This document shows, piece after piece, positions 11,063 to 58,239 of a DNA stretch of 64,000 nt (within the stretch, counting starts at the first letter, position 1; the number at the start of each line of letters is the position of its first letter). The DNA comes from Escherichia coli (GTDB taxonomy: Bacteria; Pseudomonadota; Gammaproteobacteria; Enterobacterales; Enterobacteriaceae): assembly GCF_030013595.1 (NCBI RefSeq), contig NZ_CP122768.1; one strand, 5' to 3'. Both the position numbers and the translations under genes were made by a program. The notes beneath the pieces are model-generated. The model was not told where the DNA came from. It saw only the letters and a list, made by a program, of their open reading frames with translations, and did no database searches.

Positions 11063-11908
11063 ATGTCCACGACATGGTTTGTAGGAGCCGACTGGCTCGC
11101 CGAACATATTGATGACCCGGAAATTCAGATTATCGATGCCCGCATGGCGTCGCCTGGACAGGAAGATCGTAACGTTGCTCAGGAGTATCTGAATGGACAT
11201 ATTCCCGGCGCAGTGTTTTTTGATATCGAAGCGCTTTCTGATCACACTTCCCCGCTTCCGCACATGCTGCCGCGCCCGGAAACGTTCGCCGTGGCGATGC
11301 GTGAGTTAGGCGTTAACCAGGATAAGCACCTGATTGTCTATGACGAAGGTAATCTTTTCTCAGCCCCACGAGCATGGTGGATGCTGCGCACCTTTGGTGT
11401 AGAGAAAGTGTCGATTCTGGGGGGTGGACTTGCAGGCTGGCAGCGCGATGATCTGCTGTTAGAAGAAGGTGCAGTAGAGCTGCCGGAAGGAGAGTTTAAC
11501 GCCACGTTTAATCCTGAAGCCGTGGTGAAAGTCACCGATGTGTTATTGGCAAGCCATGAAAATACGGCGCAAATTATTGATGCCCGCCCGGCTGCACGTT
11601 TTAACGCAGAAGTTGATGAACCTCGCCCAGGTTTACGTCGCGGACATATTCCCGGCGCGTTTAACGTTCCGTGGACAGAACTGGTACGTGAAGGCGAACT
11701 AAAAACGACCGATGAACTGGATGCGATATTTTTTGGTCGCGGCGTAAGTTATGACAAACCTATTATCGTCAGTTGCGGTTCTGGTGTAACGGCAGCCGTG
11801 GTTTTGTTGGCACTCGCGACGCTGGATGTGCCAAACGTGAAACTGTACGACGGCGCATGGAGTGAATGGGGCGCACGGGCAGATTTACCGGTTGAGCCAT
11901 TGAAATAA
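11063..11908 (+). CDS. sseA: 3-mercaptopyruvate sulfurtransferase
   Basis: ORF track frame 10904..11908; start trimmed to MSTTWFVGADW (281 aa); rhodanese active-site CGSGVTA. Confidence 0.9.
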   Translation: MSTTWFVGADWLAEHIDDPEIQIIDARMASPGQEDRNVAQEYLNGHIPGAVFFDIEALSDHTSPLPHMLPRPETFAVAMRELGVNQDKHLIVYDEGNLFSAPRAWWMLRTFGVEKVSILGGGLAGWQRDDLLLEEGAVELPEGEFNATFNPEAVVKVTDVLLASHENTAQIIDARPAARFNAEVDEPRPGLRRGHIPGAFNVPWTELVREGELKTTDELDAIFFGRGVSYDKPIIVSCGSGVTAAVVLLALATLDVPNVKLYDGAWSEWGARADLPVEPLK

Positions 11909-11924: not shown

Positions 11925-11953
11925 AAAAAACCGCCGAATTTGGCGGTTTTTTA
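11925..11953 (+). terminator. rho-independent terminator downstream of sseA
   Basis: Hairpin ccgccgaa/ttTggcgg followed by T-tract (aaaaaaccgccgaatttggcggttttttatt). Confidence 0.7.
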
Positions 11954-12099
11954 TTGCTGGTCTGGTTCGCGGCCTTTCCAGCAGGTTGACTTGTGTTGTC
12001 GGAGCAACGCAGGTGCTTCACAGCAAAGCAATACTCGCCAGTAACTCTCTTTTTGTCAAGCGAAAGAGAGTAATCATTGTTTATTTAGCGTATTATCGA

Positions 12100-12405
12100 C
12101 ACCGGCCCTTTCCGCCGTCTCGCAAACGGGCGCTGGCTTAAGGAAAGGATGTTCCATGGCCGTAAATGCAGGTGTTTCACAGCGCTTGCTATCGCGGCAA
12201 TATCGCCAGTGGTGCTGTCGTGATGCGGTCTTCGCATGGACCGCACAATGAAGATACGGTGCTTTTGTATCGTACTTATTGTTTCTGGTGCGCTGTTAAG
12301 CGAGGTAAATAATAACCGGAGTCTCTCCGGTAACAATTTACTGGTGGTTAACAAACTTCAGAGCAGCAAGTAAGCCCGAATGCCGCCCTTTGGGGCGGCA
12401 TATTT
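12100..12405 (+). ncRNA. ryfA: ryfA-type small RNA / timP mRNA, copy 1 (5' end not determined)
   Basis: Location between sseA and sseB where RyfA maps in E. coli; ends at hairpin gccgccc-tttg-gggcggc plus atatttt; contains small hydrophobic ORF. Confidence 0.45.
12236..12373 (+). CDS. timP: small hydrophobic protein, TimP-like type I toxin candidate (MDRTMKIRCFCIVLIVSGALLSEVNNNRSLSGNNLLVVNKLQSSK; may start at second Met)
   Basis: Own translation; ORF below the 60-aa track cutoff; hydrophobic TM-like core IRCFCIVLIVSGALL; position inside ryfA. Confidence 0.5.
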   Translation: MDRTMKIRCFCIVLIVSGALLSEVNNNRSLSGNNLLVVNKLQSSK

Positions 12406-12488
12406 TAGATTATCCGATGCTGTTTAAAGTCACGCAAAAAACCACCCCAGCGACGTTCATAGAATGGCGCAATATGTTCGGTAATAAA
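12395..12488 (-). pseudogene. duplicated 3'-terminal fragment of sseB (~30 codons) carried in repeat unit A
   Basis: Sequence ttagattatccgatgctgtttaaagtcacgcaaaaaaccaccccagcgacgttcatagaatggcgcaatatgttcggtaataaa is identical to the 3' end of sseB at 13083-13166. Confidence 0.8.
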
Positions 12489-12779
12489 ATAACCTAGCTT
12501 ATTAGTCCGAATTCAGACAAATATAAACAATTTTCGCTTAATATTAAAAATACTAACCAATAAAAGATATTACTTGAACATGTAATTTCACTTTCTTTAA
12601 ACAACAAAAAACCGCCAAAATCAGGCGGTTATTTGTTGCTGGTCTGGTTCGCGGCCTTTCCAGCAGATTGTATTACCGTAGTAATGCAAGCGCGTCTCAG
12701 CGGACACAATACTCGCCAGTAACTCTCTTTTTGTCAAGTAAAAGAGAGTTATTATTGTTCTGTTAGTGTATTATCCACT

Positions 12780-13085
12780 GCGGACCTTTCCGCCGTCTCG
12801 CAAGCGGGCGCTGGCTTAAGGAAAGGATGTTCCGCGACCGTTAGAGCAAGCGCGTCTCAGCGCTTGCTATCGCGGCAATATCGCCAGTGGTGCTGTCGTG
12901 ATGCGGTCTTCGCATGGACCGCACAATGAAGATACGGTGCTTTTGTATCGTACTTATTGTTTCTGGTGCGCTGTTAAGCGAGGTAAATAATAACCGGAGT
13001 CTCTCCGGTAACAATTTACTGGTGGTTAACAAACTTCAGAGCAGCAAGTAAGCCCGAATGCCGCCCTTTGGGGCGGCATATTTTA
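12780..13085 (+). ncRNA. ryfA: ryfA-type small RNA / timP mRNA, copy 2 (5' end not determined)
   Basis: Duplicate of copy 1; terminator hairpin 13060-13077 and T-tract overlap the sseB stop codon. Confidence 0.45.
12914..13051 (+). CDS. timP: small hydrophobic protein, TimP-like type I toxin candidate, copy 2 (identical 45-aa translation)
   Basis: Own translation of atggaccgcacaatgaagatacggtgcttttgtatcgta...agcagcaagtaa. Confidence 0.5.
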   Translation: MDRTMKIRCFCIVLIVSGALLSEVNNNRSLSGNNLLVVNKLQSSK

Positions 13086-13859
13086 GATTATCCGATGCTG
13101 TTTAAAGTCACGCAAAAAACCACCCCAGCGACGTTCATAGAATGGCGCAATATGTTCGGTAATAAAGTGGCTAATTCCTTTTTCCCCTTTTTTCACCTGA
13201 CAAATATCGATGGGTTCATCGCCAGGTAATGTATCGGTCGCTACACTTCCTGCCGCCTGAATAATTTCTTCGATATCACCATCGGCTTCAATGCCAATAA
13301 GTAAATTAGGCTGTGCCTCTTCGTTCTCTTTAATTGAACAAATAAAAGCACGCTTCACCGGCTTAATAGTTTTAAATAAGGTGGTGAGTGAATCAATCAT
13401 TTGTGCTGGTGGCTCTGCAACTTCCGATAATATCAGCGATTCACCGCCTTCCAGTACTTCCTGGCTGCTCAGCGGATTTCCTTCTTCACCAATCAGCAAA
13501 CTGATTTCACGCGGCATAAATTCTTTACCGGTTGGCAGTTTGGCATTAAGGAAGAGCGTTTCGCCAAGGGTCATCTCAAACAATGTGCGAACGGGCATTA
13601 CGACAAATGCCTGTTCGTCTTCAACCGCCTGTTGAAGTGCTTCTAACGAGGTGAAAAAAGGAATGACGCTGGTGCCGTCTTCTTTTTCCCAGTGCTGTAA
13701 ATCAAGCGCGCTATCTTCAACCACAGCCTCGCCCTTCGCCGCCGTACCAGGCACCCAGACGGTGGATTCCAGTAGCGTACGGAAAAAGGCCGGGCGGTGC
13801 GCCGGTTCGGTTGCTGCTTTTTCCAGCAGATCTTCAAGTTCGTTTTTTGTTTCGGACAT
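13083..13859 (-). CDS. sseB: SseB family protein (enhances serine sensitivity)
   Basis: ORF track 13083..13868; start trimmed to MSETKNELEDLL (258 aa). Confidence 0.9.
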   Translation of the reverse strand: MSETKNELEDLLEKAATEPAHRPAFFRTLLESTVWVPGTAAKGEAVVEDSALDLQHWEKEDGTSVIPFFTSLEALQQAVEDEQAFVVMPVRTLFEMTLGETLFLNAKLPTGKEFMPREISLLIGEEGNPLSSQEVLEGGESLILSEVAEPPAQMIDSLTTLFKTIKPVKRAFICSIKENEEAQPNLLIGIEADGDIEEIIQAAGSVATDTLPGDEPIDICQVKKGEKGISHFITEHIAPFYERRWGGFLRDFKQHRII

Positions 13860-13977: not shown

Positions 13978-15261
13978 TTACGCCGTTAACAGATTAGCAA
14001 TCGTGCGCACACCTAGCCCGGTCGCGCCCGCAGACCACTGTTCAACCGGCGATTTACGGTAAGTCGCCGAGCAGTCGATATGCAGCCAGCCTTGCTGATA
14101 GTTCTCAACAAAGTGCGACAGGAAGCCCGCCGCCGTGCTCGCGCCTGCCGGATACGCCGCGCTTCCGGTATTGTTCAGTTCCGCAAAGTTAGACGGCAGC
14201 TGGCTGCGGTGGAACTCCGCCAGCGGCAGACGCCAGAACGGTTCATTCTCCTGCGCGGCACTCGCCAGCAAGCGACCGGCAAGCGCATCGTCAAAACTGA
14301 ACAGCGCGTGATAATCATTACCCAGCGCAGTTTTCGCCGCCCCGGTGAGGGTCGCCGCATCAATGATCAGTTCCGGTTTCTGCGCACTGGCATCAATCAG
14401 GCCATCGGCCAGCACCAAACGCCCTTCGGCATCAGTGTTCATCACTTCAACTTTTTTACCGTTGCGATAGGTAATAATATCGCCCAGTTTGAACGCGTTG
14501 CCGCTGATCAGGTTATCCGCACAGCAGAGGAACAGCTTCACGCGCTTGTTCAGTCCGCGCGTAATGGCAAATGCCAGCGCCCCGGTAACCGTTGCCGCGC
14601 CGCCCATGTCCGACTTCATCGAGTCCATAAACGCAGTCTGTTTGATGCTGTAGCCGCCGGAGTCAAAAGTGATACCTTTACCTACCAGGCACGCGTACAC
14701 TGGCGCTTCTTTATCGCCTGTTGGGTTGTAATCCAGCGCCAGCAATACCGGGGAACGTTCTGAACCGCGCCCGACCGTGTGCAGCCCCATATAACCTTGA
14801 TCACGCAGATCTTCACCTTTGGTGATCCGATAAGTCACACGATCGCCCGCGACGTTGCTGATCAGATCAACAGCACGCTGTGCCAGTTGCGATGGTCCCA
14901 ATTCTTCTGCCGGTGCGTTGATGGTGTCACGCACCCAGTCGATGATCATCAGGCGGTTATCCAGTTCCTGCCGCTGGGCATCGTCCAGATCCGGCCACTC
15001 CACTTTACGCGTGCCTTTCGGGGCTTTGTAACCTTGCCAGAATGTCCAGCAGCGATCCGCATCCCAGCCTTCACCGCTTAACTGAACATGTTTGATGCCC
15101 AGACCGTCAATCTTGCGCGCCGCACGCTGGATCAGCCCCAGATCGTCTGCCCCGTTCAAATGCAGGGTAATGCCATCATTATTAATGCTGTAAGTCGCTT
15201 TTTCTCCCCAGCGCGCGTCGGCAGGTTGGGTAGAGAGGGTAATTTTCATCGCTTCTGTCAT
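13978..15261 (-). CDS. pepB: aminopeptidase B (M17 peptidase)
   Basis: ORF track 427 aa; M17 motif NTDAEGRL. Confidence 0.93.
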
Positions 15262-20315: not shown

Positions 20316-20426
20316 TGCTCTATAAACTCCGTACATCACTCAATGCAAGGAACCAGGCTACCGGCTGGATGTACGACCGTGTTTACGGAGCGCGATACGC
20401 CCCGGCCTGATTCTGAATTCTTTTTA

Positions 20427-56910: not shown

Positions 56911-58239
56911 CTGATGAATCCCCTAATGATTTTGGTAAAAATCATTAAGTTAAGGTGGATACACATCTTGTCATATGATCAAATGGTTTCGCGAAAAATC
57001 AATAATCAGACAACAAGATGTGCGAACTCGATATTTTACACGACTCTCTTTACCAATTCTGCCCCGAATTACACTTAAAACGACTCAACAGCTTAACGTT
57101 GGCTTGCCACGCATTACTTGACTGTAAAACTCTCACTCTTACCGAACTTGGCCGTAACCTGCCAACCAAAGCGAGAACAAAACATAACATCAAACGAATC
57201 GACCGATTGTTAGGTAATCGTCACCTCCACAAAGAGCGACTCGCTGTATACCGTTGGCATGCTAGCTTTATCTGTTCGGGCAATACGATGCCCATTGTAC
57301 TTGTTGACTGGTCTGATATTCGTGAGCAAAAACGACTTATGGTATTGCGAGCTTCAGTCGCACTACACGGTCGTTCTGTTACTCTTTATGAGAAAGCGTT
57401 CCCGCTTTCAGAGCAATGTTCAAAGAAAGCTCATGACCAATTTCTAGCCGACCTTGCGAGCATTCTACCGAGTAACACCACACCGCTCATTGTCAGTGAT
57501 GCTGGCTTTAAAGTGCCATGGTATAAATCCGTTGAGAAGCTGGGTTGGTACTGGTTAAGTCGAGTAAGAGGAAAAGTACAATATGCAGACCTAGGAGCGG
57601 AAAACTGGAAACCTATCAGCAACTTACATGATATGTCATCTAGTCACTCAAAGACTTTAGGCTATAAGAGGCTGACTAAAAGCAATCCAATCTCATGCCA
57701 AATTCTATTGTATAAATCTCGCTCTAAAGGCCGAAAAAATCAGCGCTCGACACGGACTCATTGTCACCACCCGTCACCTAAAATCTACTCAGCGTCGGCA
57801 AAGGAGCCATGGGTTCTAGCAACTAACTTACCTGTTGAAATTCGAACACCCAAACAACTTGTTAATATCTATTCGAAGCGAATGCAGATTGAAGAAACCT
57901 TCCGAGACTTGAAAAGTCCTGCCTACGGACTAGGCCTACGCCATAGCCGAACGAGCAGCTCAGAGCGTTTTGATATCATGCTGCTAATCGCCCTGATGCT
58001 TCAACTAACATGTTGGCTTGCGGGCGTTCATGCTCAGAAACAAGGTTGGGACAAGCACTTCCAGGCTAACACAGTCAGAAATCGAAACGTACTCTCAACA
58101 GTTCGCTTAGGCATGGAAGTTTTGCGGCATTCTGGCTACACAATAACAAGGGAAGACTTACTCGTGGCTGCAACCCTACTAGCTCAAAATTTATTCACAC
58201 ATGGTTACGCTTTGGGGAAATTATGAGGGGATCTCTCAG
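56911..58239 (+). mobile_element. IS10 (complete, 1329 bp) inserted in eutJ, flanked by 9-bp target duplication GGCGTAGTG
   Basis: Outside end CTGATGAATCCCCTAATGATTTTGGTAAAAATCATTAAG at 56911; inside end ...GGGGATCTCTCAG at 58239; direct repeat ggcgtagtg at 56902-56910 and 58240-58248. Confidence 0.95.
57018..58226 (+). CDS. IS10 transposase (402 aa)
   Basis: ORF track MCELDILHDSLYQFCPELHLKRLNSLTLACHALLDCK..., recognised as IS10/Tn10 transposase. Confidence 0.95.
   Translation: MCELDILHDSLYQFCPELHLKRLNSLTLACHALLDCKTLTLTELGRNLPTKARTKHNIKRIDRLLGNRHLHKERLAVYRWHASFICSGNTMPIVLVDWSDIREQKRLMVLRASVALHGRSVTLYEKAFPLSEQCSKKAHDQFLADLASILPSNTTPLIVSDAGFKVPWYKSVEKLGWYWLSRVRGKVQYADLGAENWKPISNLHDMSSSHSKTLGYKRLTKSNPISCQILLYKSRSKGRKNQRSTRTHCHHPSPKIYSASAKEPWVLATNLPVEIRTPKQLVNIYSKRMQIEETFRDLKSPAYGLGLRHSRTSSSERFDIMLLIALMLQLTCWLAGVHAQKQGWDKHFQANTVRNRNVLSTVRLGMEVLRHSGYTITREDLLVAATLLAQNLFTHGYALGKL

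Follow-up and report, generated by a model that had tools for sequence, protein, structure and literature searches.

Two probable timPR toxin-antitoxin cassettes with different antitoxin seeds in tandem between sseA and sseB of Escherichia coli

The interval between sseA and sseB in a 64,000-nt stretch of Escherichia coli DNA (RefSeq assembly GCF_030013595.1, contig NZ_CP122768.1), which we call the window, holds two copies of ryfA as parts of a tandem direct repeat. In all likelihood the repeats are two complete timPR type I toxin-antitoxin cassettes whose antitoxins have distinct specificities. Both the toxin-antitoxin family and its tandem arrangement are known and already recognised by annotation pipelines, and the locus adds a new allelic member. 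Anatomy, family membership, seed-target complementarity with its covariation, and population distribution were determined directly.

Anatomy and seed-target pairing of the cassettes

Unit A spans 11925-12488 and unit B 12607-13166, at an offset of 678-682 bp. The repeat finder returned two pairs, 12029-12328 with 12707-13006 (300 nt, 92%, spacing within 678-682 nt) and 11925-11988 with 12607-12670 (64 nt, 84%), and pairwise alignment of the units gave 94% column identity. With repeats of this length and identity, chance is no concern. The first-pass annotation of the window had reported a tandem ryfA duplication here, with long identical stretches and with divergence in the middle and at the 5′ ends; both observations hold, at essentially the same coordinates. 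A run of 309 nt (12180-12488 and 12858-13166) is 100% identical between the units, and divergence is limited to two patches, at about 11985-12030 versus 12665-12706 and about 12156-12179 versus 12834-12857. Over the ryfA genes 14 of 305 positions differ (95.4% identity), 11 of them within nt 55-78.

Each unit has a timP gene (ryfA) on the plus strand and a divergent timR gene on the minus strand:

11925..12024, minus: timR-A, about 100 nt; its 3′ end is a bidirectional terminator common with sseA
12006..12024, minus: TimR-A seed, RNA nt 1-19, GCUGUGAAGCACCUGCGUU
12059-12054 and 12036-12031, minus: putative timR-A promoter, −35 TTGACA and −10 GAGTAT, 17-nt spacer
12025..12101, no strand: putative divergent promoter region of unit A, 77 bp, read from the sequence
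12102..12406, plus: ryfA-A, the timP-A mRNA, 305 nt; Rfam RF00126, full length, 311.1 bits
12165..12183, plus: predicted TimR-A binding site in stem-loop 2 (SL2) of the timP-A leader; type A, the ‘TGTTT’ variable region of Fris 2017
12248..12373, plus: timP-A coding sequence, 41 aa, MKIRCFCIVLIVSGALLSEVNNNRSLSGNNLLVVNKLQSSK; NCBIfam NF040796, 80.4 bits
12380..12401, plus: timP-A intrinsic terminator, a 9-bp stem (7 G-C pairs) followed by a T run
12607..12701, minus: timR-B, about 95 nt
12630-12610, minus: timR-B intrinsic terminator
12686..12701, minus: TimR-B seed, GCUGAGACGCGCUUGC
12737-12732 and 12714-12709, minus: predicted timR-B promoter, −35 TTGACA and −10 GAGTAT, 17-nt spacer
12780..13084, plus: ryfA-B, the timP-B mRNA, 305 nt; RF00126, full length, 310.4 bits
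12846..12861, plus: predicted TimR-B binding site in SL2 of the timP-B leader; type B, the ‘CGCGT’ variable region of Fris 2017
12926..13051, plus: timP-B coding sequence, 41 aa, identical to TimP-A; NF040796, 80.4 bits

The gathering score of RF00126 is 80, and the cutoff of NF040796 (toxic_TimP) is 45 bits. RefSeq annotates the same open reading frame (ORF) as that of timP-A in strain HCP5S3_I2. The ends of timR-A match those of K-12 timR (b4811; locus L001, 1246-1345), whose 20-nt end sequences lie at 11925 and 12005, and timR-B was placed by homology to timR-A (78% identical columns). By sequence prediction both timR genes have a perfect −35 element, the same 17-nt spacer and −10 element, and an intrinsic terminator. 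On the plus strand a −10 element for timP-A, TATTAT, lies at 12091-12096; inspection of the sequence found no clear −35 element for the timP promoter. A palindrome, ACTCTCTTT-N10-AAAGAGAGT, occurs within the divergent promoter regions at 12044-12071 and 12722-12749, where it overlaps the timR −35 elements. Units of types A and B keep it, and those of type C have it in rearranged form (types are described below); it may be an operator for some regulator.

The TimR-A seed pairs with nt 64-82 of the timP-A mRNA through 19 contiguous pairs, two of them G-U, and the TimR-B seed with nt 67-82 of the timP-B mRNA through 16 contiguous Watson-Crick pairs; non-cognate combinations of seed and leader reach 9-11 contiguous pairs at most. 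Duplex energies of the TimR-A seed are −36.2 kcal/mol with timP-A versus −19.9 with timP-B, and those of the TimR-B seed −35.9 kcal/mol with timP-B versus −24.6 with timP-A. The discrimination in silico between cognate and non-cognate partners of types A and B is therefore 11-16 kcal/mol, and shuffled seeds give means of −13 to −15 kcal/mol with a standard deviation of 3. All these energies are restricted to the seed; longer-range folding (TimR nt 1-40 with mRNA nt 1-140) was dropped because it gave inflated, uninformative duplexes.

The position of SL2 was taken from the Rfam structure line and from PMC11228461. It is predicted to fold in both units, at −10.9 and −17.3 kcal/mol. Its 3′ half is identical between them; the differences in the 5′ half are by eye mostly transitions, through which G-U wobble would keep the stem paired. 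The middle patch of divergence is the 5′ side and loop of SL2, and the 5′-end patch is the TimR seed, on the opposite strand. Within each unit the patches vary together, so the copies most likely differ in which antitoxin regulates each. The divergent middles had been taken at first to suggest sibling small RNAs with different targets or regulation. Regulation is the better-supported half of that proposal, and different targets the less likely one: the siblings are most likely toxin mRNAs, and the variable region the docking site of the antitoxin.

Covariation of seed and target extends beyond the window. We computed a 13×13 duplex matrix from four E. coli seed/target types and nine timPR loci from Superficieibacter, Yersinia, Rahnella and Erwinia. 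The outside loci were drawn from a contig scan with the degenerate pattern GCGGTCNNNGCANNGACCGCAC; the matches listed were mostly unrelated GC-rich palindromes, and about 12 enterobacterial loci among them were usable. In all 13 rows and all 13 columns the cognate partner gave the strongest duplex, with a mean of −35.9 for cognate pairs against −19.9 for non-cognate pairs (standard deviation 6.3). The observed mean was not equalled in any of 100,000 permutations.

In one genome, Yersinia pekkanenii, three timPR loci lie on three contigs (L077, L078, L079), and no two of them have the same matched pair of seed and target. Diversification of multiple copies thus extends beyond Escherichia.

An unlikely alternative is that RyfA-A and RyfA-B are mainly trans-acting sibling RNAs, possibly with a dual function, whose divergent SL2 regions recognise different mRNA targets while TimR tunes their levels. 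It accounts for several published phenotypes: in uropathogenic E. coli (UPEC) CFT073, destroying the TimP ORF leaves ryfA able to complement phenotypes in stress, fimbriae and motility (PMC8205139); in Shigella dysenteriae, overproduction of RyfA1 abolishes ompC mRNA (PMC5333039); and in avian pathogenic E. coli (APEC), virulence is ryfA-dependent while loss of timR has little effect (PMC13188913). Yet in every type examined the variable patch matches the neighbouring timR seed base for base, as co-evolution with the antitoxin predicts; an unrelated trans target would give no reason to expect such a match. From Escherichia to Yersinia, moreover, the conserved ORF belongs to a recognised protein family, and no known trans target is complementary to SL2. 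That the copies differ in their controlling antitoxin and not in trans targets is most likely. A trans-acting role is compatible with the cassettes being toxin-antitoxin systems, and RyfA may possibly have a dual function.

Proposed mechanism and published counterparts

In the proposed mechanism each cassette would transcribe a timP mRNA of about 305 nt rightwards, encoding a 41-aa inner-membrane toxin, TimP, and a TimR of about 95-100 nt leftwards from the 77-bp divergent promoter region. TimR would pair through its 5′ end with the 5′ side and loop of SL2 in the timP leader and block translation, as in Salmonella. TimR-A would silence timP-A and TimR-B timP-B, with little cross-talk. We infer that all four RNAs are expressed, that E. 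coli TimP is toxic and that types A and B are functionally orthogonal.

The model for this mechanism is Salmonella enterica, where ryfA is the timP mRNA and the divergent TimR represses it by pairing, through its 5′ end, with 18 nt in the timP leader, as proven by compensatory mutations and in vitro translation (PMC7667032). Toxicity of overexpressed TimP and rescue by TimR through base pairing have been shown only in that species, where also a 6-nt change in the 18-nt site abolishes TimR control (PMC7667032). The TimR site lies in SL2, and TimR binding disrupts a pseudoknot that translation requires (PMC11228461). The window shares with Salmonella timPR (PMC7667032, PMC11228461, PMC13000454) the families RF00126 and NF040796, the divergent layout, the sseA/sseB neighbourhood, and a TimR 5′ end complementary to 16-19 nt of leader SL2. 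It differs in having two cassettes with different seeds, where Salmonella has a single cassette, with STM2534 between sseA and timP.

The nearest published counterpart of the tandem arrangement is in S. dysenteriae, where ryfA1 and ryfA2, 95% identical, lie with ryfB1 and ryfB2 between sseA and sseB (Fris 2017; PMC5333039). The first pass had pointed correctly to the Shigella pair; the window carries a different allele pair. As in Shigella, the ryfA copies are about 95% identical, their differences cluster in the variable region, and a divergent RNA of about 100 nt lies upstream of each. Fris 2017 described four versions of the ‘variable region’ and found that RyfB1 lowers RyfA1 and not RyfA2 (PMC5333039); RyfA was treated there as a non-coding small RNA, and toxin-antitoxin cassettes with matched seeds were not framed. 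From the Shigella primers and probes (GCAGGCCCCCCACAGTG for ryfA1, RyfB1 seed CACTGTGGGGTGCCTGCG), a C-type unit adjoins sseA and is followed by an A-type unit. The Shigella array is thus [CCCCC/C type][TGTTT/A type], and that of the window [TGTTT/A][CGCGT/B]. The idea that the window is S. dysenteriae itself was rejected on account of these different alleles and their order. In an array-wide calculation the Shigella-type duplex of C seed and A target has −22.7 kcal/mol, versus −18.4 and −11.6 for the non-cognate pairs of the window. The ineffective C/A pair is predicted to be the stronger, which makes orthogonality of A and B plausible.

Type I families with several copies and copy-specific antitoxins are reportedly found elsewhere in E. 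coli, as Ibs/Sib, ZorO/OrzO and Ldr/Rdl. In these families the cassettes are tandem or dispersed paralogues, and a small antisense RNA recognises its own toxin mRNA through a short variable region. Sib is fully cis-antisense, and TimR resembles OrzO, IstR and AgrB in its divergent gene and short seed. Set against such families, timP needs no processing and uses a pseudoknot switch.

Cassette arrays in E. coli genomes

The junction between the units and the flanks of the array are made up as follows:

11064..11908, plus: sseA, left flank of the array, from the ORF list and RefSeq annotation of homologous loci
12405..12488, minus: sseB′, a copy of the last 27 codons and stop of sseB (84 nt)
12489..12606, no strand: AT-rich inter-unit spacer, 118 nt, 24% G+C, also present in K-12
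13083..13859, minus: intact sseB, from the ORF list and RefSeq homologues of 777 nt, with start and stop codons checked
13978-15261, minus: pepB, from the ORF list

sseB′ is identical to 13083-13166 over its 84 nt, and both translate to FITEHIAPFYERRWGGFLRDFKQHRII*. Both units terminate in these same 84 nt of the sseB 3′ end, with intact sseB the source of sseB′. The first reading of the sequence had rightly put the duplication boundary inside sseB and had overestimated the copied piece, at about 95 bp. In related genomes RefSeq annotates sseB′ as an sseB pseudogene. The spacer has no counterpart beside sseB; a weak resemblance to the timP leader in a MAFFT alignment may be chance.

The array probably arose by duplication of a segment reaching from just past the sseA stop codon to 84 nt inside sseB, and was probably reshaped afterwards by recombination among specificity alleles. 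Signs of gene conversion appear on comparison with HCP5S3_I2, the nearest genome (99.2% over 1321 nt), in which RefSeq annotates two timP genes and an sseB pseudogene. Between its units 1 and 2 there are 11 differences in the 302 nt that follow SL2, and 4 residues differ between its TimPs. Unit A of the window matches unit B over those 302 nt, save the last position just past the shared repeat, and it matches the HCP5S3 unit B over 301 of the 302. The most economical reading of these sequences is that the 3′ part of unit A has recently been converted by unit B, in a tract that would have stopped short of the specificity region.

Population distribution was determined in 5,426 complete E. coli genomes. 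At least two intact units, scored by a contiguous junction of timP 3′ end, sseB′, spacer and next timR, are found in 156 genomes (2.9%). A unit in cis of type A/A (timR type/timP type) is present in 402 genomes, one of type C/C in 579, and a unit with B-type timR, K-12 hybrids included, in 4,535. The B/B unit occurs in about 2,846 genomes by subtraction, an approximate count because BLAST trimmed some alignments and identity bands could not split B/B from K-12 B/A hybrids. A further type, D, has seed GACGAGAUACACUUGC and is not one of the four variable-region versions given in Fris 2017. A D-type timR stands alone with the spacer in 392 genomes, 39 of which carry a D-type timP behind a non-cognate A′-type timR. 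Two loci with type D are those of SCU-313 (L134, 584-700) and E300010 (L135, 584-1110); in E300010 an IS200/IS605 tnpA abuts the array.

That the second copy is an assembly artefact, made of mis-joined or duplicated contig ends, is scarcely credible. The region is hard to assemble: two short-read assemblies with the exact YfhM of the window (L005, L006) break about 270 nt past sseA, at the cassette start. Such contig ends fit repeat collapse, so two-unit arrays may be under-counted in drafts. The units, however, differ at defined patches and have a unique spacer between them; many laboratories have produced complete genomes with the same junction, 156 in all and a few of them with three units, which argues against an artefact; and K-12 carries a decayed version.

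We typed 25 genomes by hand, with 42 timP genes. Pairs are written as timR type/timP type, with a dash where timP is missing:

[A][B]: the window and HCP5S3_I2
[B][A]: 2 genomes
[C][A], the S. dysenteriae order: 6 genomes
[C][B]: 1 genome
[C][A][B]: 1 genome
[C][B][A]: 1 genome
[C][A][B-timR/C-timP]: 1 genome
single A, B or C unit: 6 genomes
[A/-][B/A], K-12 type: 2 genomes
[D/-][B/B]: 2 genomes
[D/-][A′/D]: 1 genome

Types A, B and C were seen in the sampled arrays as intact cassettes, and D as a solo timR and one non-adjacent toxin. Three genomes, 19KM1831 (L013), MEW (L139) and PapM-32-1 (L144), have three tandem timPR units and two sseB′ fragments; in unit 3 of 19KM1831 timR is of type B and timP of type C, and the timR cognate to this timP lies in unit 1. 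E. coli SCPM-O-B-8794 (L027) and Escherichia sp. E1V33 (L089) have a single C/C unit directly after sseA. These two divergent genomes give a weak hint that the ancestral Escherichia state was one unit of type C.

All 42 sampled timP genes have a cognate timR somewhere in their array, at −27 kcal/mol or better, while the strongest non-cognate pair across the sampled arrays is at −22.7 kcal/mol. The cognate timR is adjacent in 38 of the 42. No array among the 14 sampled with several units has two timR genes of the same specificity. The sampled genomes are phylogenetically non-independent, so these patterns are suggestive and not proven.

These arrays bear on a further rival, that the duplication is redundant: the antitoxins cross-react, and the seed differences are neutral allelic variation joined by recombination. 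We think this improbable. In its favour, the duplex of TimR-B with timP-A has 11 contiguous pairs and lies well above the shuffled background, and units recombine and convert freely. On the other hand, a 6-nt change ends control in Salmonella (PMC7667032) and 8-12 positions differ here; the non-cognate Shigella pair, with a stronger predicted duplex (−22.7), had no effect; none of the 14 sampled multi-unit arrays repeats a timR specificity; and K-12-type and E300010-type loci retain a distal cognate timR despite the non-cognate timR beside the toxin.

The K-12 locus deserves separate description. RefSeq annotates there ryfA, timP and, beside sseA, a minus-strand non-coding RNA, timR (b4811). 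Of the first unit it keeps timR-A, 16 nt from the start of ryfA-A and 13 nt from the end of sseB′, these two remnants meeting across a 357-bp deletion, and it keeps the spacer; after the spacer come a B-type timR and then a timP with type A SL2. The deletion junction is present in 1,689 (31%) of the 5,426 genomes. K-12 is thus a decayed two-unit locus and not an unduplicated ancestor. The first pass had rightly given it a single ryfA. As its timP has a type A SL2, the annotated TimR, 400 bp upstream, would from sequence be the cognate antitoxin and the adjacent timR an orphan.

The Rfam family ‘IS128’ (RF00125), predicted to be an intergenic small RNA of K-12, falls on the same junction. In the window its match (12438-12648, full length, 212.2 bits) covers the sseB′ remnant, the spacer and the timR-B terminator. 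The RF00125 consensus carries the K-12 deletion junction, and the K-12 counterpart lies at about 1470-1680 of L001. Strand-specific Northern blots of K-12 (Shinhara 2011) detected no IS128 RNA and did detect an antisense RNA of about 95-100 nt, ECS011/IS129 (PMC3175480). This RNA is probably the orphan B-type timR of K-12, which its size and strand fit. Taking K-12 ‘RyfB/RyfC’ as timR genes was rejected, since those names belong to ShoB/OhsC.

On a broader picture we are evenly divided. Between sseA and sseB, E. coli may carry a recombining array whose timPR cassettes are mutually orthogonal and have at least four specificities, A (TGTTT), B (CGCGT), C (CACCC/CCCCC) and D, in one to three units of varied order. 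Because an unsilenced toxin would be selected against, a cognate timR would persist even where its own toxin gene had been lost. The K-12 TimR (b4811) would then be the relic of a lost first cassette, controlling a timP that sits beside a non-cognate orphan, and ‘IS128’ would be an inter-cassette scar.

Several points weigh against two orthogonal toxin-antitoxin cassettes in the window. The duplex energies leave aside target accessibility and alternative timP conformations. The 11 contiguous pairs of TimR-B with timP-A make some cross-repression possible. The copy-specificity result in Shigella measured RNA levels only (PMC5333039). On toxicity the E. coli evidence is equivocal: studies in APEC and UPEC found mild or no phenotypes of timR deletion, and RyfA phenotypes independent of the ORF (PMC13188913, PMC8205139). 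Finally, 4 of the 42 sampled timP genes adjoin a non-cognate timR, so a ‘cassette’ is not always the functional unit.

The orthogonal arrays, the K-12 relic and the IS128 scar are a modest, testable extension of what is known. The window offers natural specificity variants for studying how a 16-19-nt seed tells its targets apart in the timPR pseudoknot switch, with A and B leaders driving an identical toxin in one strain and four types (A-D) across the species. A functional K-12 antitoxin that is not adjacent to its toxin would matter for timR and ryfA deletions in K-12, UPEC and APEC, and may help explain inconsistent timR phenotypes between strains.

Other RNAs in the window

Two further Rfam matches lie outside the array, both on the minus strand. 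The iscRS stability element, at 20317-20426 (132 bits), is expected there, next to the isc operon downstream of pepB. RNA-OUT matches at 56956-57025 with 98.8 bits (gathering score 41) and indicates an IS10 copy near 57 kb.

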